This document shows, one piece after another, positions 42,631 through 50,129 of a stretch of DNA of 64,000 nucleotides. Numbering within the stretch: position 1 is the stretch's first letter; each line of letters opens with the position of its first letter. Made by a program: the position numbers and the translations under genes. This stretch comes from Patescibacteria group bacterium. Its GTDB lineage: Bacteria; Patescibacteriota; Microgenomatia; UBA1400; PJMF01. The notes beneath the pieces are model-generated. The model saw only the letters and a list, made by a program, of their open reading frames with translations, had not been told where the DNA came from and ran no database searches. The stretch covers positions 603,434 to 667,433 of the forward strand of contig BOKX01000001.1 in NCBI GenBank assembly GCA_016861205.1, in the 5' to 3' direction.

Positions 42631-43722
42631 TTAAGTTCGAGAACCCAACTGCCTACTCACCTCATCTACTGCTCGGGACATCTCTTCGATCTTGGCAGCG
42701 ATATTACCGACATTTAAACTTAGTCCGTTGATCGCCCGACTAATCGTATAAGCATCTTGAGCAGTTGAATATGTGTTGGCACTAATTTCTCTTGTGTTCC
42801 GTGCAATCTCTGTCGTACTTTTATCTATATTCCTTAAGCGTTCAATTTTTTCAATCTCTAAATTGGCTAAGGAGATAAGTGCTTCAACTCTTTGCTTCAG
42901 GTCTGTTAAAACTAAAAAGCCATAGTCTTGAATTGGCAAATCTTGTCCCAGAGCTTTTAATTTTGTTTTTACTAAATCAAATCCAGGAGTTTTGACTTGA
43001 GATCGCCAATTTTCTAATTGATGAGGATAGAAAGGCTCTGGAAGATCAGCTAAATACTGTTCTACCAAACAGCTAAGCAAGTCTTCCCTACGCTCGAAGA
43101 AGGGACGACCATAACTTATCATTGAACATGAATACTGGGGGACACCTTTTTTAGAGAATCCAAAATCTACACACAATTTATAGGGCTCATCAATTCTTTT
43201 TCTTTCTGACTTACCCTTATTGATTGGCAACCGGTGATCATAAAATATCGTAGAAATTGCCGCAGCATTTTCTAACCAGCGGCCAACTATACCATCAGTT
43301 ACATCATCTGCTGACGTAATTCCTTTTTTGACTTGCTCTAACATGTATTCACGGACTTTCTTCTCCCAATCCGAATGTGAGGGGTAAGGACGACGAAGCC
43401 AAGAAAGTATCCCATAGGGCAGATCAGTTGCCCCCGAACTAACACTAAAAACACTCCCCCATCTCTGCTGGCAAGCACCATTTATCTTATCAGTTAGTGC
43501 CTTAACGGCTTCATTTAAAGTCTCATCCTGTAAAAATCTCTCGGCATCTTGAAATCTGTTATCTGTCTCGAGCCGCGCTCGAAGTAGCTGATCTACTTCA
43601 GGGTATATGGCGTCTACTATGGTCTCTACTTCTTTCGCTTTGGCGGCGGCTGGATCCTTTATCATTCTCTGGGCATCAACTAAATCTTGAAAACTAGGTC
43701 CTTTTTTCGATTCGTGTGACAT
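42631..43722 (-). CDS. Hypothetical protein, island gene 3 (coiled-coil C-terminus)
   Basis: Low-GC ORF. Start placed at MSHESKK (cat 43720-43722) with a GAAAGGGA Shine-Dalgarno. The C-terminal ~90 aa is heptad-like (LANLEIEKIERLRNIDKSTTEIARNTREISANTYSTAQDAYTISRAINGLSLNVGNIAAKIEEMSRAVDEVSRQL). No known domain. Confidence 0.45.
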   Translation of the reverse strand: MSHESKKGPSFQDLVDAQRMIKDPAAAKAKEVETIVDAIYPEVDQLLRARLETDNRFQDAERFLQDETLNEAVKALTDKINGACQQRWGSVFSVSSGATDLPYGILSWLRRPYPSHSDWEKKVREYMLEQVKKGITSADDVTDGIVGRWLENAAAISTIFYDHRLPINKGKSERKRIDEPYKLCVDFGFSKKGVPQYSCSMISYGRPFFERREDLLSCLVEQYLADLPEPFYPHQLENWRSQVKTPGFDLVKTKLKALGQDLPIQDYGFLVLTDLKQRVEALISLANLEIEKIERLRNIDKSTTEIARNTREISANTYSTAQDAYTISRAINGLSLNVGNIAAKIEEMSRAVDEVSRQLGSRT

Positions 43723-43934
43723 AGTCCCTTTCAAAAGCGCATCGCTATTAAGAAACAATATTTTTTTAGTGCAAAATAAGTAGTGGCATTATATCACTGT
43801 GATATAGTTAGCAGTCTGCGACCGGCACAACTGCCATGTTCTTCGTCAGAACGGATATATTCATGAAACCATAACTTAGTGGTACTCAATTCAATTTGGC
43901 TCCCCGCCGTGGCAGAAATCAGGAACTGCTTTTT

Positions 43935-44954
43935 TTAAGAAAATTGTATATGGATATCTTTTAAAAGCTGACAGTTGCAACTCAAAGACTGACCACTACA
44001 CCTTGGGCATTGCTCTACATCACAACCAAAACAATGGTACTGCCCAAGAACAGCAAAACAGTCATGACATGAATTTTTTTCAGTTGATTCAATCCAGGTT
44101 ATTTTTCCCCCATCAACTTTCATTTCATCTGGTTCATCAAATTTCTCGTATCCATATTTTATTCTTCTAAACCTCTTTCCATGTAAAATAATTGTTTTTT
44201 CTTTTTGTGATTTATCAAACTCTTCATAGTATTGAAAATATGCGTAAAGTTTCATGGAAACATTGTTGAGCTCTTCAGTTGGGAAACCTGATTCTAACCT
44301 ATGCAACCCTTTGGTTCTGTTGCTATGAATTTTTTCAAAAGCTTTTCTAATTTCCCCATCCATACCCACACCTAATTTGTAAACTTCGTTGAGTAGAATA
44401 CCAAAGCGACCACTTTTCTCACCCGGCTTATGTCCATTTTTCTCAAGTAGAAATCTCGTCAGAAAACTATCGGCATCTTTTATATAATCCCAATTACTTA
44501 TTATTCCCATATCCCACCTTCTGAAAATAACTTCATACTCATGAGAAAAGGGGTCAGTAAAGGCACCTGGAATATAGTTGAATTGATTCAATTTTCCTAA
44601 AACATGCTTTTTTAAATACTTACTATATGGGTTTTCGAATCTGTGCTCAAGAAGTTGCTGATAGAGTGGAATGATTGCTTGATCCAAGACAGCTTCTCTA
44701 TTTTTCTTATCCAGAGCACATGAGTAGTAGTAAAGTCCTCTATTGAGAATCATCTCTTGCAACAGAGCATCAATAGAACCAGTTTGTCCATCAACAATAA
44801 TGTTGAAGCGCCCTCTGCCCAGATATTCAAAAGTAAATTTTGTATTTCTTGAATACCTCTTGCCCACTTGATTCAAAAATTCTAGAAAATTAATAGCGTG
44901 TGTGTGATATTTTGCTTTTACATTAATTATTTGATCGTATCCTGCCATATTCAC
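43935..44954 (-). CDS. Hypothetical protein, island gene 2 (C-terminal Cys cluster, zinc-ribbon-like)
   Basis: Very AT-rich ORF (~32% GC in sampled stretches). C-terminus CHDCFAVLGQYHCFGCDVEQCPRCSGQSLSCNC carries 10 Cys in 33 aa. No known domain. Confidence 0.45.
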   Translation of the reverse strand: MNMAGYDQIINVKAKYHTHAINFLEFLNQVGKRYSRNTKFTFEYLGRGRFNIIVDGQTGSIDALLQEMILNRGLYYYSCALDKKNREAVLDQAIIPLYQQLLEHRFENPYSKYLKKHVLGKLNQFNYIPGAFTDPFSHEYEVIFRRWDMGIISNWDYIKDADSFLTRFLLEKNGHKPGEKSGRFGILLNEVYKLGVGMDGEIRKAFEKIHSNRTKGLHRLESGFPTEELNNVSMKLYAYFQYYEEFDKSQKEKTIILHGKRFRRIKYGYEKFDEPDEMKVDGGKITWIESTEKNSCHDCFAVLGQYHCFGCDVEQCPRCSGQSLSCNCQLLKDIHIQFS

Positions 44955-45068
44955 AGAATTATATTGTAGATTTAGTCCAACAAAAGGTTCAAGCGTCTAA
45001 GACAGGGTAAGCTTTTTACTTGAGGGGGAAACGTTGCTCCATGTATGGAACTTTATCCGATCGCTGAA

Positions 45069-46145
45069 TTAAGCTGGCATTATTTTGACAAAACCCATCG
45101 CAATCAGCTCCTTGAGTAAATCCATAGCTTTTGCTTCCAATGCTCCTCCTGGAAAGTTGATGTAACCAAGGTCACTAAAGTCGCTCGGCAAATTCACTCC
45201 GTCTTCTTTAAAAATTATTACCTTTTCACCATAAAGCACGCTTGCTGCTCCCAATTCAAACACGACATTTGCATTTGGTTGAACAATATTTGAATCACCA
45301 TCAGTTGCTTCATCTTTTGACGAAAAAATAAAAATTGCTGAGCCACATTCGTGCATTGTATCTCTAACTTTTTGAGAAACAGGTCTGCCAGAGTGTGCTT
45401 CATGAATAGCAACTTTATGAGGAATGCCAAATTGATTTAATATTTTTTCTAGCTGAGTAAGCGGTTGCCTGTCCTTACCATGAGCTATGAAAATAGGCTT
45501 AAGGATATTTGATTTTGATTCTTCCTCTGGATTAATAACTTCTTGAGCTAAAATTTCTTGTTGATTCTCCTCAATTTCTAACTCTGTATTTTCTCCTAAA
45601 TCGGGGTCACTTTCCTCGCTGCCATTCAACATTACGTACAAAGAACCACTTATGTCGCGTATAATTCCTGTGTATTTTCCATTTTCAAGCAAGAGAGAAA
45701 CTGCTTCTTCACTAAATTCTCGAGATACATTGAATGTGACTTCTAATGTGTTTTTAAAAAAATCACCTTGAGGAAACTTGTTGTTTTGATAGTGACTATA
45801 GACTTTACTGAACAGTTCTGGCGTTAGGACAGCTTGTTTTTTTGCTTCATTTCTTTGTGCTTCAGAGAGTGGCTGAGTTATTTTCTTTCCTAAATCGGTG
45901 AGCTCAATGTTTTCAGCTTTTTCTGTTCCAAGTGTCAAACCATATTTGAAAGAGCAACTTAATAAGTCTCGAAAATTTGTACTCAAGGGTTTTATTCCTA
46001 AAGCATTTGCCAATAACAAGCGATTCATTGGCTTCCCAGCATTTTGATTTTGTATAGTCTCTGCAATTTTCAAAGACTCTTGTAAGGAATAAAGAGGAAA
46101 AGGTCTAACCCTTCTAGTTTTCTTCTGTTTATCTGCTGTCTCCAT
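45069..46145 (-). CDS. Island gene 1: two-domain protein with C-terminal TIR-like (COG4271/PF10137-type) nucleotide-binding domain
   Basis: The C-terminal ~130 aa (PIFIAHGKDRQPL...CGSAIFIFSSKDEATDGDS...NANVVFELGAASVLYGEKVIIFKEDGVNLPSDFSDLGYINF) follows the TIR-like consensus as I recall it (VFIVHG..., AIVLLTPDD, NVIFELGYF, VELPSDLxG). The N-terminal ~210 aa is unassigned. Confidence 0.5.
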   Translation of the reverse strand: METADKQKKTRRVRPFPLYSLQESLKIAETIQNQNAGKPMNRLLLANALGIKPLSTNFRDLLSCSFKYGLTLGTEKAENIELTDLGKKITQPLSEAQRNEAKKQAVLTPELFSKVYSHYQNNKFPQGDFFKNTLEVTFNVSREFSEEAVSLLLENGKYTGIIRDISGSLYVMLNGSEESDPDLGENTELEIEENQQEILAQEVINPEEESKSNILKPIFIAHGKDRQPLTQLEKILNQFGIPHKVAIHEAHSGRPVSQKVRDTMHECGSAIFIFSSKDEATDGDSNIVQPNANVVFELGAASVLYGEKVIIFKEDGVNLPSDFSDLGYINFPGGALEAKAMDLLKELIAMGFVKIMPA

Positions 46146-46191
46146 ACTCTACCTTTCTTGGGCAGAAATTTGGTCCGGATAAGCAACAGGT

Positions 46192-46266
46192 GGCTCCCCG
46201 ACTAGGACTCGAACCTAGAACCTTTTCGTTAACAGCGAATTGCTCTGCCATTGAGCTATCGGGGAA
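46192..46266 (-). tRNA. tRNA-Asn (anticodon GUU), CCA encoded
   Basis: Hand-folded cloverleaf: acceptor TCCCCGA/TCGGGGA, D-arm GCTC-AATGGCA-GAGC, anticodon arm ATTCG-CTGTTAA-CGAAA (U33, GUU, A37), T-arm CTAGG-TTCGAGT-CCTAG, discriminator G, CCA; 75 nt. TACAAT -10-like hexamer about 12 nt upstream. Confidence 0.85.
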
Positions 46267-46503
46267 TGTTAACTCGGGTATTGTAGCAAACCTGCAGCCA
46301 CCTTGCCAGCCCTGCTGGCCACTGATTTGAGCCAAACTCTGCTCCGCCACGCTCCGCAGATACCCTACTTTAACTTCAAATAATTCTACATTTGACATAT
46401 TTCTTACACATTGTGTCAGCCGCGTTCAAGGATTAAACTCCACAATTATAAGAAAATATTCTATTACTATCTGCCGCAGGTCGGCTAGAAACCTGCAGAA
46501 CCT

Positions 46504-47088: not shown

Positions 47089-47894
47089 CTGAGCTCAACT
47101 ACCCGCTGCGAGCGGTTATTTTGGCTGGCGGCCTCGGCACCCGCCTGCGAGAAGTCACCCACGGCCTGATTCCTAAAGCTGCCGTTACCATCGAACCAAG
47201 TAACCGCACACCTGGCTATCAGTACTTGATCGATGTCTGCCGCTATCTTGGCATCACCGATATCGCCTTGGTGGCAGACACTTTTCTGGAGTACTACCAG
47301 CAGCAACTGCCAACCAATCGCGATGTTCACCTCATTCACCAACACCGCTACCCCAACACTGGGGGAGCCATTTGGGAAGCTATGCAAACGCTTGATGCGC
47401 ATCACCAGTTGTTGCTCCTCAGTTCAGACTTCATCTTCGCCCCGAGTGACCTGCGCCGGTTGCTAACTGCCCACCAACCGGGGCAGTTGACTTGGGCCAC
47501 CTTGCCGCTGGGGCAACCTGAGATGGCCGGCTACGAAGGTCTGCTGGTCGACACTGATCATCAAGTCTGGGGTGATACCCAACTGACGCCCGATCTGACC
47601 CCACTAGCTGAAGCTCAGCCTGTCACTAAACTCGGCATCCAAATCGTCGATCCCTGCTTAGTCACCACCGCACTTGAACTCGCTGCCACCACCACCGACA
47701 ACGAACACCAGCTTTTCGACTGGTACTGGACTCTCTGCCCTCTGCTCGAAAGTCACAACTACCACCGGCTAGTGGCTGGCCAACCGTCGCACATCACGGC
47801 GGTGGAGTTTGCCCACCCTGCCCTTGATTATGGAACTCCAGAAAGGTTAGCGTTGGCCAGATGGTGGACTGGTCTGCTGAAACTCTATGCTTGA
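47085..47894 (+). CDS. Nucleotidyltransferase (sugar-phosphate/MobA-like NTP_transferase fold)
   Basis: AVILAGGLGTRLRE glycine-rich NTP-binding loop. Start at ATG 47085 with an AAGGAG Shine-Dalgarno 8 nt upstream; the track ORF start at 46992 is upstream and out of favour. Confidence 0.55.
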   Translation: MTELNYPLRAVILAGGLGTRLREVTHGLIPKAAVTIEPSNRTPGYQYLIDVCRYLGITDIALVADTFLEYYQQQLPTNRDVHLIHQHRYPNTGGAIWEAMQTLDAHHQLLLLSSDFIFAPSDLRRLLTAHQPGQLTWATLPLGQPEMAGYEGLLVDTDHQVWGDTQLTPDLTPLAEAQPVTKLGIQIVDPCLVTTALELAATTTDNEHQLFDWYWTLCPLLESHNYHRLVAGQPSHITAVEFAHPALDYGTPERLALARWWTGLLKLYA

Positions 47895-48420
47895 ACCAAC
47901 CTATCGCTACTGTCCACAATGCGCCTCATTCTTGCGACTAAAAGTCATTGATCGTCTGACACGCCAAGTTTGTACCAGTTGTGGCTGGATCAAGTACTTA
48001 CATACCCCGATCGTGGGGGTGGTGATTTTGCAAAATCATAAAGGCCAAATCTTACTGGTCCAACGTGCCCAAGCTCCATTCAAAGGTCAGTGGAGTTTGC
48101 CTGGTGGGTTTGCTGAGTTTGGCGAACATCCGCTCGACACCGCCCAGCGCGAGCTACGGGAAGAAACGGGCTTGGTCGTCACCGACTTGAGCATCGTTAA
48201 CGTGTACATCAGTGATGAACACCCGACCACCAACTCGCTGGTGGTGGTGTGTCAGGCCGTGTTGCCCAAAGCTCCGCGGCGAGTGACCGCCCACGACGAC
48301 ATTGTTCAGGCCACTTGGTTTAAACCAAACCTTGAACAACTGCCACCACTCGCTTTTGCCACTCAACAGTTAGCTCTTACATCTTGGCTCACCAGCCAGA
48401 AAGGTCACCATGACTCATAA
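47887..48420 (+). CDS. NUDIX hydrolase with N-terminal zinc ribbon (NudC-like architecture)
   Basis: CPQC...CTSC zinc ribbon, then a perfect Nudix box GGFAEFGEHPLDTAQRELREETGL. Confidence 0.75.
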   Translation: MLEPTYRYCPQCASFLRLKVIDRLTRQVCTSCGWIKYLHTPIVGVVILQNHKGQILLVQRAQAPFKGQWSLPGGFAEFGEHPLDTAQRELREETGLVVTDLSIVNVYISDEHPTTNSLVVVCQAVLPKAPRRVTAHDDIVQATWFKPNLEQLPPLAFATQQLALTSWLTSQKGHHDS

Positions 48421-48709: not shown

Positions 48710-49231
48710 TTGATAGCTAAACGCTACCTTGTGTCAGACACTCAGGTAGTTCACAATTCCCGAGGGTTTTCATACGAAAGGATCACGATGGGCGGACCCG
48801 CGCTAGCTGAACGCAACTTAGTACACACTTCTTCACCGCCCGATATTCCGTTTTTAACCCACGAGCTCATACCTCACTCAGCCAACCAAGCGCCCAGCGG
48901 TGAAGTGGTAGTAGTCTACCCCGGTGATACGCTGCTCCAAACCATCTCATACTGTGTTCAAAATACCGAGATCATGGTGACGCTCACGAACTTGGTCTTG
49001 GATCGCCCGGCACCGGCTGGGTACATTCCGGTGGAAACGACGATGAAACAGCACCGCCACAATGGCCACACCACAGCAAGTGAGACACCGGCAGACGAAT
49101 CGGCCGACGACTCGGCAGAAAACACCACTGATCACAAAGTGACTGGTTTACTCTCTGTCGGATTTTATGGTTTGGCGAACGGCACGCGATTGGTGTACCA
49201 ACCAACTAGGCCCGCTGCTCAGCCTGATTAA
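48710..49231 (+). CDS. Hypothetical protein (173 aa)
   Basis: ORF-only. Acidic/His-containing C-terminal tail. Confidence 0.3.
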   Translation: MIAKRYLVSDTQVVHNSRGFSYERITMGGPALAERNLVHTSSPPDIPFLTHELIPHSANQAPSGEVVVVYPGDTLLQTISYCVQNTEIMVTLTNLVLDRPAPAGYIPVETTMKQHRHNGHTTASETPADESADDSAENTTDHKVTGLLSVGFYGLANGTRLVYQPTRPAAQPD

Positions 49232-50129
49232 AGAAAGCGGCGGTGAGTAAGTAGCGAATCAGCCACCGTTGGTACGCAGGTTTTGCATGATTGGGATCCT
49301 TCAGAGCTTCCAGCACCTTGGGGCCAAATCGTTTTTCGAGCCGCTCAAATTTTTGTGTGTGCACTAAACGCGAGTAGGTGTGACCTTTAACTTCATAGGT
49401 TGCATCTAAGTAGTACTTGAGAGCATCAACTATCAATAACCACTGATCACCAGTGCGCCGTAGGACTAAACTACTGTTTGCCCAGTAATTCCGGCTTGGT
49501 ATCTCCATAGCAATATCGTTGGTCTTCATCAGTCGTAATGCTTCGACTTCGTCAAGCTCATACCTGAAAATAACTTGTTGGTTTGGTTGTCTAAAAAACT
49601 TGCTGACGTAGTAATCACAGACGGCTTCCCGCAACTCTAAGTTGTACTCATCGAGTTTAATCAAAACATGCATTAGCTCGTGGCAGGTCAGTAACATATG
49701 GGTCATGCATGTAAAGTCATGATCACGCTGACGAGCCGGTGGGTAGATCGGTGCTACGCCAGTCGCTACCAATGGAATGGTGGGGACTTCGTGCTCAGCA
49801 CCATTATCTAGAACCAGATTTAAAATTGAGAAACCTTTTAGCACTATCCGGTCATCTACCGGTTCAAGCTGATTATCTATGATCATATCCTGCAGTAATC
49901 CCACCTGTGATGAATCAGCTTGCGTCAAATGTTCGAGGGTAGCCCACGCTGCGTCACTCCGCAGTGGAATCCTTGAGCCAGCTAGTTCTTGCTCCATAAA
50001 GGTTAGAAAGGCCCGACCAGTTTCGTAAATTGCTGCGTGCTCCGTGGGTGACGTGCCTTCAATTTCCAGTCGCCAGGCGTCGATCAAATCAGTTGTCGCT
50101 GCCTGCGACATATCTAGTTCTGGTTTCAT
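49206..50129 (-). CDS. Hypothetical protein with HExxH motif (possible zinc metallopeptidase-like)
   Basis: LTCHELMHVLIKLDE contains HELMH. No other family features recognised. Confidence 0.35.
   Translation of the reverse strand: MKPELDMSQAATTDLIDAWRLEIEGTSPTEHAAIYETGRAFLTFMEQELAGSRIPLRSDAAWATLEHLTQADSSQVGLLQDMIIDNQLEPVDDRIVLKGFSILNLVLDNGAEHEVPTIPLVATGVAPIYPPARQRDHDFTCMTHMLLTCHELMHVLIKLDEYNLELREAVCDYYVSKFFRQPNQQVIFRYELDEVEALRLMKTNDIAMEIPSRNYWANSSLVLRRTGDQWLLIVDALKYYLDATYEVKGHTYSRLVHTQKFERLEKRFGPKVLEALKDPNHAKPAYQRWLIRYLLTAAFFNQAEQRA

Follow-up and report, generated by a model that had tools for sequence, protein, structure and literature searches.

Two candidate single-polypeptide sensor-effector genes, encoding a TIR protein and a predicted HEPN protein, on a small tRNA-Asn-associated islet

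The characterised members of the PF10137 family, Cap12/TIR-STING and PycTIR, deplete NAD+ instead of signalling. HEPN toxins usually require an antitoxin. Thoeris pairs a ThsB-type TIR protein (PF13676 or PF08937) with an effector containing a domain for signal binding (SLOG, Macro or others). In SfSTING, the catalytic residue is E84 (PMC9402430), and RAZR (PD-T7-4) is a single-gene abortive-infection system that joins a HEPN RNase to a zinc finger determining phage specificity; its N-terminal Cys4 ribbon precedes DUF4145 (PMC13017515).

The window analysed here is a 64-kb stretch of DNA in which the initial annotation had described three minus-strand genes of low GC content, lying directly 3' of a tRNA-Asn, as one horizontally acquired candidate defence module. 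All three open reading frames are present, and the tRNA gene lies 45 nt from the start of gene 1. The features of the locus are as follows:

46280-46309, minus strand: extended -10 promoter-like sequence immediately 5' of tRNA-Asn (consensus match only)
46191-46265, minus strand: tRNA-Asn(GUU), the insertion target (ARAGORN; Rfam RF00005, 67.5 bits)
46191-46200: tRNA-proximal copy of a 10-nt direct repeat, TGGCTCCCCG on the plus strand, equal to the tRNA 3' end CGGGGAGCCA
43907-46192: strain-specific low-GC insertion of ~2.29 kb with genes 1 and 2 (blastn against relatives; GC)
43911-43919: second short direct repeat, the 9-mer GGCAGAAAT, inside the distal end (two copies in 64 kb)
43897-43906: distal copy of the 10-nt direct repeat, 28 nt past the stop codon of gene 2
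42631-43722, minus strand: gene 3 (P3, 363 aa), a resident ORFan of this lineage that ends in a coiled coil and lies outside the insertion

A comparison with related strains delimits the mobile segment. L016 and L018 are collinear with the window up to 43906 and again from 46193, with an 8-nt overlap (blastn against the window), and L011 and L019 taken together show the same empty site. Because gene 3 comes immediately after tRNA-Asn in close relatives (L016, L018 and L011), with genes 1 and 2 missing, the insertion comprises only ~2.29 kb with genes 1 and 2, and its polymorphism and boundaries are directly observed. A third allele, in L020, has different cargo at the same tRNA-Asn site. The initial annotation had placed the far boundary at about 42.6 kb, had seen no convincing direct repeat of the tRNA end there and had proposed a search for relatives in which tRNA-Asn is followed directly by the SRPBCC gene. 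Instead, gene 3 follows the tRNA in the relatives, the mobile segment ends at ~43.9 kb, and a 10-nt copy of the tRNA 3' end is present between genes 2 and 3. The window has no copy of this repeat other than those at the two junctions. The tRNA gene ends in ...CGGGGAGCCA in the insertion-bearing allele and in ...CGGGGAGCAA at the same position in the empty-site strains, and the empty-site flank at the distal junction reads AAATTGAATTG.... The partner copy of the 9-mer GGCAGAAAT lies at 46161-46169, just within the tRNA-proximal end.

The base composition of the segment is also distinct. In 500-nt windows, GC is 0.34-0.42 over 42.5-46.2 kb versus 0.44-0.57 in the flanks, and GC3 is 0.28, 0.29 and 0.34 in genes 1, 2 and 3, respectively, versus 0.52-0.63 in neighbouring genes, which bears out the compositional deviation first noticed. 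The GC of 43907-46192 (0.361) is the minimum among 618 sliding windows of equal length in the 64 kb (mean 0.479, sd 0.03). The insertion contains two open reading frames only, neither of which encodes a recombinase or integrase. The segment is a small, integrase-less, horizontally acquired islet at the 3' end of tRNA-Asn(GUU), so that the earlier claim of acquisition stands for genes 1 and 2 and fails for gene 3. The islet would have come from a low-GC donor, and it is bordered by a 10-bp duplicate of the tRNA end. Read-through transcription of gene 1 from the promoter-like site upstream of the tRNA is possible because the gene starts 45 nt past the tRNA, and the two may be co-transcribed.

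The first protein of the islet, P1, consists of three regions:

45069-46145, minus strand: gene 1 (P1, 358 aa), predicted single-protein sensor and TIR NADase
45621-46112, minus strand: N-terminal domain, aa 12-175, helical with beta-hairpins
45504-45620, minus strand: disordered acidic linker, aa 176-214 (pLDDT <50 at residues 179-212)
45072-45503, minus strand: TIR domain of the Cap12/Pycsar type, aa 215-358

The TIR-like domain proposed in the initial annotation is confirmed by a PF10137 match of 64.1 bits (cut-off 24.7; E=1.5e-17) over residues 218-331, and the domain has the flavodoxin-like TIR fold (AF2 model of P1, mean pLDDT 85.8). PF10137 is matched by all 36 aligned family members, and by all of the 120 homologues listed (of 509), which have 80-100% query coverage and 43-59% identity. 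N293 and E297 of P1 pair with N80 and the catalytic E84 of SfSTING and are invariant in 36 sequences, and in the profile alignment NVVyELG stands opposite KPRDNVVFEFG of 7un8; E297 is the predicted catalytic Glu and is intact. The top sequence and structure matches of the domain are immune TIR-STING proteins. The N-terminal domain has no match in Pfam and none to STING or SAVED; it looks like a tandem winged helix, is similar to MarR-type DNA binders, and is taken here as a predicted sensor or oligomerisation domain. The linker differs among relatives in length and sequence, and the alignment is gapped there. The P1 family numbers more than 500 proteins and is conserved over its full length, with the winged-helix-like domain, the linker and the TIR domain in this order.

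The second protein, P2, is encoded by an open reading frame that reaches a GTG at 44954, with the ATG at 44948 as the best start:

44963-44992, minus strand: sigma-70-like promoter match TTGAAC-18-TACAAT in the 114-nt gap between genes 1 and 2 (consensus match only)
43935-44948, minus strand: gene 2 (P2, 337 aa from the ATG at 44948), predicted HEPN RNase with a C-terminal zinc module
44778-44948, minus strand: N-terminal small alpha/beta domain, aa 3-59 (strands 6-11, 38-46 and 49-56, helix 14-32; pLDDT >90)
44202-44777, minus strand: HEPN-fold helical core, aa ~60-251 (339-aa numbering)
43965-44201, minus strand: C-terminal module, aa ~252-330, beta-hairpins (RIKYGxE) and then a Cys/His cluster

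P2 has no Pfam, NCBIfam or PADLOC match at E<=1 and no PDB sequence match; the HEPN assignment therefore rests on the predicted structure and the motif. The AF2 model (mean pLDDT 92.8, pTM 0.88) contains the four-helix up-down HEPN fold, and the invariant H210-x2-R213-T-x-G-L-H218-R219 provides an Rx4H motif, within the Rx4-6H pattern, in which R213-T-x-G-L-H218 is unchanged in 40 of 40 family sequences (codons 44316-44318 for R213 and 44301-44303 for H218). P2 is accordingly described here as a putative HEPN-fold protein and predicted RNase. This fold had been overlooked in the initial annotation.

The Cys/His cluster of P2, CHDC-x7-HC-x2-CDxExCPxC-x6-CxC, is predicted to bind two zinc ions, and C296, D298, C299, H307, C311, D312, E314, C316 and C319 are invariant in the module. 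Alone or in other fusions, the zinc module is present at ~300 genome loci and on 143 viral contigs; the fusions include one to RelA_SpoT (E=1.8e-18), and the module also follows other RNxxxH helical domains. It is regarded here as a predicted sensor or target-binding domain.

A defence role is the most plausible one for the islet because of the domain content and neighbourhood of P1 and P2, and this role, the triggers and the enzymatic outcomes are presumed in the following scheme. With a probability of about 0.6, the islet carries two unrelated, autonomous abortive-infection candidates, each with sensor and effector on one polypeptide. The N-terminal domain of P1 would sense an infection cue and oligomerise; the clustered TIR domains would then form a whole NADase active site, much like those in filaments of TIR-STING, TIR-SAVED and SpbK, and the depletion of NAD+ would stop the growth of the infected cell. 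By analogy with RAZR, the zinc module of P2 may bind a phage component, which would reposition the HEPN dimers so that the active RNase cuts cellular RNA and translation is blocked. No antitoxin for P2 is evident at the locus, and an MNT antitoxin is found neither in the window nor among the families of 46 neighbours of P2 homologues.

Alternatively, the cargo may not serve immunity: genes 1 and 2 might maintain the islet as selfish addiction or toxin genes, or might have ordinary cellular functions. In the latter case P1 could regulate by DNA binding through its winged helix and process nucleotides or nucleosides with a TIR/NDT-like domain, and P2 could be a HEPN enzyme of RNA processing. The resemblance of the P1 N-terminal domain to MarR-type proteins and the participation of HEPN domains in RNA maturation (e.g. 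Las1) agree with such roles, whereas the best TIR matches are immune proteins. Housekeeping genes are numerous beside P1 homologues, but the 101 immediate neighbours also include RM methylases, integrases and Gp49 toxins, with no recurrent partner among them, and the closest homologue among the matches listed (59% identity) lies 38 nt 3' of a tRNA-Asn and is followed by a DNA methylase. P2 homologues adjoin Shedu (3 loci), MmeI, type III RM, GmrSD, DUF2326, serine recombinase and tRNA genes, and no conserved partner or recurrent neighbour was found for this family. The presence or absence of the segment among near-identical strains, its foreign composition, the alternative cargo at this tRNA hot spot, and the patchy distribution of both families over bacterial and archaeal phyla at 40-60% identity likewise argue against a non-immune role, which is considered unlikely.

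It is far less probable that P1 and P2 form a Thoeris-like pair, in which the TIR domain of P1 would make an NAD-derived signal on infection and P2 would be the signal-activated HEPN effector. The two genes may be functionally coupled in the source genome because they arrived together, co-oriented and 114 nt apart, in one 2.3-kb insertion; however, a P2 relative is present near P1 relatives at 0 of 83 loci, a P1 relative is present near P2 relatives at 0 of 26 non-source loci, and the two gene families are independent of each other. About 30 different effector types are paired with TIR signal generators (bioRxiv 10.64898/2025.12.03.692087), a TIR_2 domain is present in 1 of the 46 neighbours of P2 homologues, and one subclade of P1 has a conserved downstream gene that resembles a PD-(D/E)xK nuclease. 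Against these points, P1 carries its own large conserved N-terminal domain, its TIR domain is of the PF10137 clade (TIR_2 gives E=0.22 only), and P2 has no recognisable signal-binding domain (SLOG, Macro, CARF or SAVED), nor do P2 and P3 contain the SLOG or Macro domain of a Thoeris effector. Additionally, the promoter-like site between the genes is compatible with separate transcription of P2, although such matches are no more numerous in the region than in shuffled sequence.

Gene 3 has no demonstrable link to P1 or P2. An exhaustive phmmer search of 1.84 billion representatives recovers only its own cluster and one marginal coiled-coil match, and its pN/pS is 0.38-0.48 versus 0.00-0.15 for neighbouring genes. 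Of the two genes initially called orphans, only gene 3 is a genuine ORFan, and purifying selection on it is relaxed; gene 2 has 86 homologues (37-60% identity) spread over many phyla, all without a Pfam domain. A cooperative module of P1, P2 and P3, as first proposed, has almost no probability and is already contradicted by the empty-site strains: the genes are co-directional, low in GC3 (0.28-0.34) and without housekeeping identity, but P3 adjoins the tRNA in strains without P1 and P2, the direct repeat separates P2 from P3, and P1 and P2 are found widely in the absence of P3, which itself has no relatives anywhere.

The reading of P1 and P2 as two autonomous candidates can be compared with the described systems. 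P1 shares the Asn and the catalytic Glu of the NVVxELG motif with Cap12/TIR-STING and PycTIR, and the same chemistry, oligomerisation-activated NAD+ hydrolysis, would be expected from this motif. In contrast to these effectors, P1 has no STING, SAVED or transmembrane ligand-sensing domain, and its TIR domain sits C-terminal to a winged-helix-like domain absent from Pfam. No CD-NTase or pyrimidine cyclase is nearby: no operon CD-NTase and no STING or SAVED domain of CBASS is annotated by Pfam in the 21 kb around the genes, and no PycC is adjacent, the neighbours being the tRNA, a 194-aa NUDIX-like protein, an NTP transferase, P2 and P3. The earlier statement that cyclases, SAVED/CARF sensors, ThsA-like proteins and integrases are missing holds within ~10 kb, by the Pfam domains annotated on the identical contig. 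Since P1 lacks both a cyclase and a ligand-sensing domain, its trigger would not be a cognate cyclic nucleotide from an operon partner. The top PADLOC match of P1 is PDC-S35 (E=6e-20), a single-gene phage-defence candidate for which the literature search gave no paper. Like P1, PDC-S35 is a stand-alone gene with this type of TIR; however, the match covers the TIR part alone (P1 residues 189-352, profile positions 95-255 of 264), and the N-terminal 175 residues of P1 form a different, larger domain, so that P1 does not appear to be a full-length member. SpbK and other single-protein TIR abortive-infection sensors differ from P1 in TIR subfamily and N-terminal domain, and a sequence relationship between these sensors and P1 is undetectable outside the TIR fold.

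For P2, RAZR is by analogy the closest mechanistic precedent. The domain order is reversed, however: P2 has an alpha/beta domain, the HEPN core and a C-terminal Cys/His module with eight ligands, which is of another type. P2 also has no DUF4145 or PADLOC match, and its catalytic spacing is Rx4H instead of the R146...H154 of RAZR. Compared with HEPN-MNT toxins (SO_3166, 7ae2) and DUF86/YutE, P2 has ~200 more residues, with additional domains at both ends, its sequence identity to them is 6-7%, and P2 and its homologues have no adjacent MNT nucleotidyltransferase antitoxin. Finally, the islet is only ~2.3 kb, with a repeat of only 10 bp and without an integrase or mobility gene, but it has the insertion at the tRNA 3' end, the distal repeat and the empty site in relatives of a tRNA-integrated island, and like the tRNA genomic islands it has a repeat of the tRNA end at its far junction, is foreign in composition and strain-variable, and shares its site with alternative cargo.

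Three minus-strand open reading frames lie beyond the 3' end of a tRNA-Asn gene, as described in the initial annotation, and are referred to here as P1, P2 and P3:

46191-46265, minus strand: tRNA-Asn(GTT) (ARAGORN and Rfam)
45069-46145, minus strand: P1, 358 aa (ORF call)
43935-44954, minus strand: P2, likely ATG at 44948 (ORF call)
42631-43758/43722, minus strand: P3 (ORF call)

The tRNA ends at 46191 on the minus strand, which places the start of P1 45 nt past its 3' end, and the likely start codon of P2 is chosen because its family begins with MAGYD. The low GC content ascribed to these genes is real and far beyond chance, since the block has a GC fraction of 0.34-0.42 in 500-nt windows versus 0.44-0.57 on both sides, the GC3 values of P1, P2 and P3 are 0.276, 0.291 and 0.335 against 0.52-0.63 in neighbouring genes, and the segment 43907-46192 (GC 0.361) is the minimum among 618 same-length sliding windows in the 64 kb (mean 0.479, sd 0.03). 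An identical 21-kb contig annotated with Pfam bears out the earlier statement that no cyclase, SAVED/CARF or recombinase gene is nearby, and reveals no SLOG/Macro gene near the locus. A search of 42-47 kb for ncRNAs and tandem repeats (an antitoxin or a retron/CRISPR-like element) returns the tRNA alone, and no terminators are found at the locus.

Two small ORFs are located close by. An 89-aa ORF (46129-46398, minus strand) overlaps tRNA-Asn and its upstream region; it is called as 73-103 aa by some gene callers on related contigs and is almost certainly spurious. A 177-aa zinc-ribbon NUDIX protein (47887-48420, plus strand) adjoins the tRNA and matches the PADLOC candidate PDC-S07 (E=6.6e-11), which may be generic NUDIX similarity alone; the gene is kept in all related strains and therefore behaves as a core gene.

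The 194-aa gene on the opposite side of the tRNA served to retrieve contigs of closely related strains, by exact match to its protein, and their flanks are 95-99% identical to the window at the nucleotide level. A comparison by blastn reveals a recent insertion of approximately 2.29 kb at tRNA-Asn, as the related contigs run collinear with the window as far as 43906 and continue from 46193, the two matches overlapping by 8 nt. Two of these strains (L016 and L018) have the order 194-aa gene, tRNA-Asn, P3 and SRPBCC gene, and lack P1 and P2; the contig of a third (L011) opens at the 3' end of the tRNA, which a 96% identical P3 follows directly, and that of L019, from the same sample as L011, stops at the tRNA. 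The island had been proposed to contain three genes, but P3 adjoins the tRNA in three strains without the others, and the insertion thus comprises P1 and P2.

With a slash marking the junction, the empty site reads ...GTCGGGGAGC/AAAATTGAATTG..., and the occupied allele reads ...GTCGGGGAGCCA/CCTGTTGC... at the tRNA and ...CCACGGCGGGGAGCCA/AATTGAATTG... at its distal end, 28 nt beyond the stop codon of P2. In the 64 kb, these two insertion junctions are the sole places where the 10-mer TGGCTCCCCG (plus strand) is present. The initial annotation set the far boundary at about 42.6 kb and reported no repeat, which was missed because it was sought there and the true boundary is at 43.9 kb. Additionally, the 9-mer GGCAGAAAT has exactly two copies in the 64 kb, in direct orientation (43911-43919 and 46161-46169), which lie within the insertion, 4 nt from its distal junction and 21 nt from the tRNA-proximal one; this pair might have been left by the integration mechanism or by some earlier event. 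No integrase is found within the insertion. In a near-identical strain (SRR25316602; L020:1-390, a short contig), different AT-rich DNA, containing a 52-aa ORF and, convergent with it, a partial ORF, follows right after the same tRNA-Asn, which there ends in ...CGGGGAGC. The site is therefore a hot spot, and near-identical strains show at least three alleles of it. The islet is of the ordinary tRNA-associated type, though neatly resolved, and the turnover of putative defence genes is seen cleanly in this integrase-less segment of 2.3 kb.

P3 is a resident of the site. Its only relatives, in an indexed search and in an exhaustive phmmer search of 1.84 billion representatives, are those of its own cluster from related strains (96% identity), and searches of Pfam, NCBIfam, PADLOC and PHROGs give only sub-threshold coiled-coil or MCP-like matches, the MCP-signal similarity being in its C-terminal coiled coil. 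P3 is intact in four strains and has a pN/pS of 0.38-0.48 versus 0.00-0.15 in neighbouring genes, which indicates a real, quickly evolving gene. The low GC3 of P3 suggests that it, too, was acquired at this hot spot, at an earlier time. The differences between strains are clustered, at nt 110-332 of the gene in L011 and mainly at 384-674 in L016, and L011 is nearly identical to the window in the 3' third of P3, the intergenic region and the first part of the SRPBCC gene; such a distribution suggests mosaic recombination tracts.

Other strain differences are observed nearby. A second variable segment of about 900 bp (49223-50122), with a 307-aa ORF (49206-50129, minus strand) that has no Pfam or PADLOC match, is present in the window and L019 and absent in L015, L016 and L018. 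L011 contains an extra 193-aa Ser_hydrolase gene (L011:1804-2426) between the SRPBCC and 3-dmu-9_3-mt genes, which the window lacks (window junction 42102/42126).

The family alignment and the AF2 model (mean pLDDT 85.8) divide P1 into three parts:

Residues 12-175: N-domain, well conserved, helices and beta-hairpins, tandem-winged-helix-like (AF2, pLDDT 94-98)
Residues 176-214: linker, disordered and acidic, of variable length across the family (pLDDT below 50)
Residues 218-331: match to PF10137 (CAP12-PCTIR_TIR), 64.1 bits versus a cut-off of 24.7, E=1.5e-17

The C-terminal part is a TIR domain, as first proposed, and Foldseek concurs. The family profile matches Cap12/TIR-STING in the PDB (E=1.6e-5) and aligns N293 and E297, both invariant in 36 of 36 aligned sequences, with the NVVFEFG segment of SfSTING, which holds N80 and the catalytic E84 (PMC9402430). 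The N-domain has only sub-threshold matches in Pfam. In PADLOC, P1 matches the single-gene candidate PDC-S35 (E=6e-20) in the TIR part only, and no literature on PDC-S35 was found. Homologues of P1 number 509, and the best 120 of these, from bacteria and archaea, show 80-100% query coverage and 43-59% identity, and all contain PF10137. No relative is found in IMG/VR.

The closest full-length homologue of P1 (59% identity; L001:7889-9059, and L104) is on metagenome contigs of 155-200 kb with about 38% GC, from an organism with a 66% identical RpoD. It lies 38 nt 3' of a tRNA-Asn(GTT) in the same orientation, downstream of rpoD and followed by a mad2-like/type II DNA methylase gene, and that tRNA ends in ...CGGGGAGCCA, as in the occupied allele of the window. 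The position of a low-GC homologue at a tRNA-Asn end fits an acquisition through recombination at the tRNA end, with a low-GC relative as the source; at the L001 locus, a distal repeat of that end was searched for and not found.

Gene 2 had been regarded as an orphan, but 86 homologues with 37-60% identity are found, all of them hypothetical proteins by annotation, from Asgard archaea, Dormibacterota, Omnitrophota, Bacteroidales and others, and a genome scan adds about 25 full-length relatives from further phyla. A full-length relative is also located on a viral contig (L181). P2 matches no curated family in Pfam, NCBIfam or PADLOC and nothing significant among PDB sequences. P2 is modelled confidently by AF2 (mean pLDDT 92.8, pTM 0.88), with three parts:

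Residues 1-59: small alpha/beta domain (AF2)
Residues 60-251: long helical core (AF2)
Residues 252-330: beta-rich Cys/His module (AF2)

In the family alignment, H210-x2-R213-T-x-G-L-H218-R219 (Rx4H) and the C-terminal cluster CHDC-x7-H(C)-x2-CDxExCPxC-x6-CxC are invariant. As modelled, P2 has the structure and motif of the HEPN superfamily. Both P1 and P2 are intact genes; the fold is TIR in P1 and HEPN in P2, and the catalytic residues of each are conserved.

The two families each behave autonomously, in variable contexts that are often rich in defence or mobility genes. No P2 relative is present at 83 P1-relative loci (40-47 of which have at least 1.5 kb on a given side), and neither a P1 relative nor a recurrent partner is present at 26 non-source P2 loci. 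In Pfam scans of immediate neighbours, no family exceeds 2 of 101 for P1 or 3 of 46 for P2. P1 relatives are found near RM methylases, integrases and Gp49 toxins beside housekeeping genes, and P2 homologues adjoin serine recombinases, DUF2326, SMEK_N, type III RM, GmrSD, Shedu (3 loci), MmeI and tRNAs. An all-versus-all BLAST of ORFs within 3.5-4 kb of 83 P1 and 27 P2 loci reveals no general partner; apart from antisense-frame artefacts and lineage-level synteny, it yields only a single P1 subclade (L003:9066-10100, L108, L109, L114, L116) in which a conserved gene of about 344 aa abuts the TIR gene downstream. This gene has no Pfam match and a marginal PADLOC match, and its GPDG...IIIESKTS motif suggests a PD-(D/E)xK nuclease; the pair could be a genuine two-gene variant.

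The Cys/His module of P2 (signature RIxYGxE...CHDC...GCDxExCPxC...CxC), a predicted two-zinc module, is found without the rest of P2 at about 300 further genome loci and in 143 viral contigs (for example L059:8034-9410, L071:1-1260; L064, L083, L087, L047, L068, L056, L073; L182-L260). Most of these loci encode free-standing proteins of 72-130 aa, and such proteins are present in more than 100 viral contigs, some of them jumbo-phage-sized. In some fusions the module is N-terminal to an alarmone-synthetase-like RelA/SpoT domain (E=1.8e-18), and in others it is C-terminal to different helical RNxxxH domains (HEPN-like; DUF3644 weak); it is also located within phage proteins and, once, behind a resolvase-like N-terminus. 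It is a separable, promiscuous domain. It is conceivable, though improbable, that the module is a portable phage-sensing domain gating different toxic effectors and that the free-standing phage copies are decoys or inhibitors. If so, P2 would be the founder of a class of zinc-finger-gated RNases that resembles RAZR but is separate from it in evolution, with the phage copies serving as counter-defence. That the module occurs with different types of toxin and in numerous phages is a concrete lead on infection recognition or phage evasion.

P1 and P2 are probably both defence genes that act independently (probability roughly 0.6), each a self-contained abortive-infection device. The N-domain of P1 would detect a cue and seed oligomers, and TIR-TIR packing would complete the NADase site, so that NAD+ would collapse; in TIR-STING the pocket is completed by a loop from the dimer mate (PMC9402430). 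In P2, a phage component may be bound by the zinc module, which would turn the HEPN dimers into the orientation of an active RNase; for this, RAZR, a zinc-finger HEPN defence protein switched on by phage ring proteins, is a precedent (PMC13017515). A non-immune role for both, as addiction toxins, a regulator or RNA-processing proteins, is rather unlikely; TIR-fold nucleoside-processing enzymes do score nearly as high as immune TIR domains in the structure searches. We consider it very unlikely that P1 signals to P2 as in Thoeris: the two genes were inserted together, but their families never co-occur at the other loci compared, the TIR domain of P1 is of an effector-type clade, and P2 has no signal-binding domain. 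A module of all three genes is rejected as extremely improbable, being contradicted by the empty-site strains and by the lack of co-occurrence of the families elsewhere.

The islet supplies two compact single-gene defence candidates, which, if active, would lengthen the list of one-protein immune genes that combine sensor and effector. Nothing in either protein is mechanistically surprising so far, and the zinc module is a worthwhile lead. By HMM, fold and catalytic glutamate, P1 belongs to the PF10137 TIR family, and it matches PDC-S35 in part. It is not a component of CBASS, Pycsar or Thoeris, as the partners that define these systems were looked for and are missing; P1 is instead a PF10137 TIR effector that stands apart from CBASS and Pycsar and carries a new winged-helix-like predicted sensor domain. 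P2 is a member of neither RAZR nor HEPN-MNT, and is a candidate HEPN RNase predicted to be gated by a previously undescribed zinc module.
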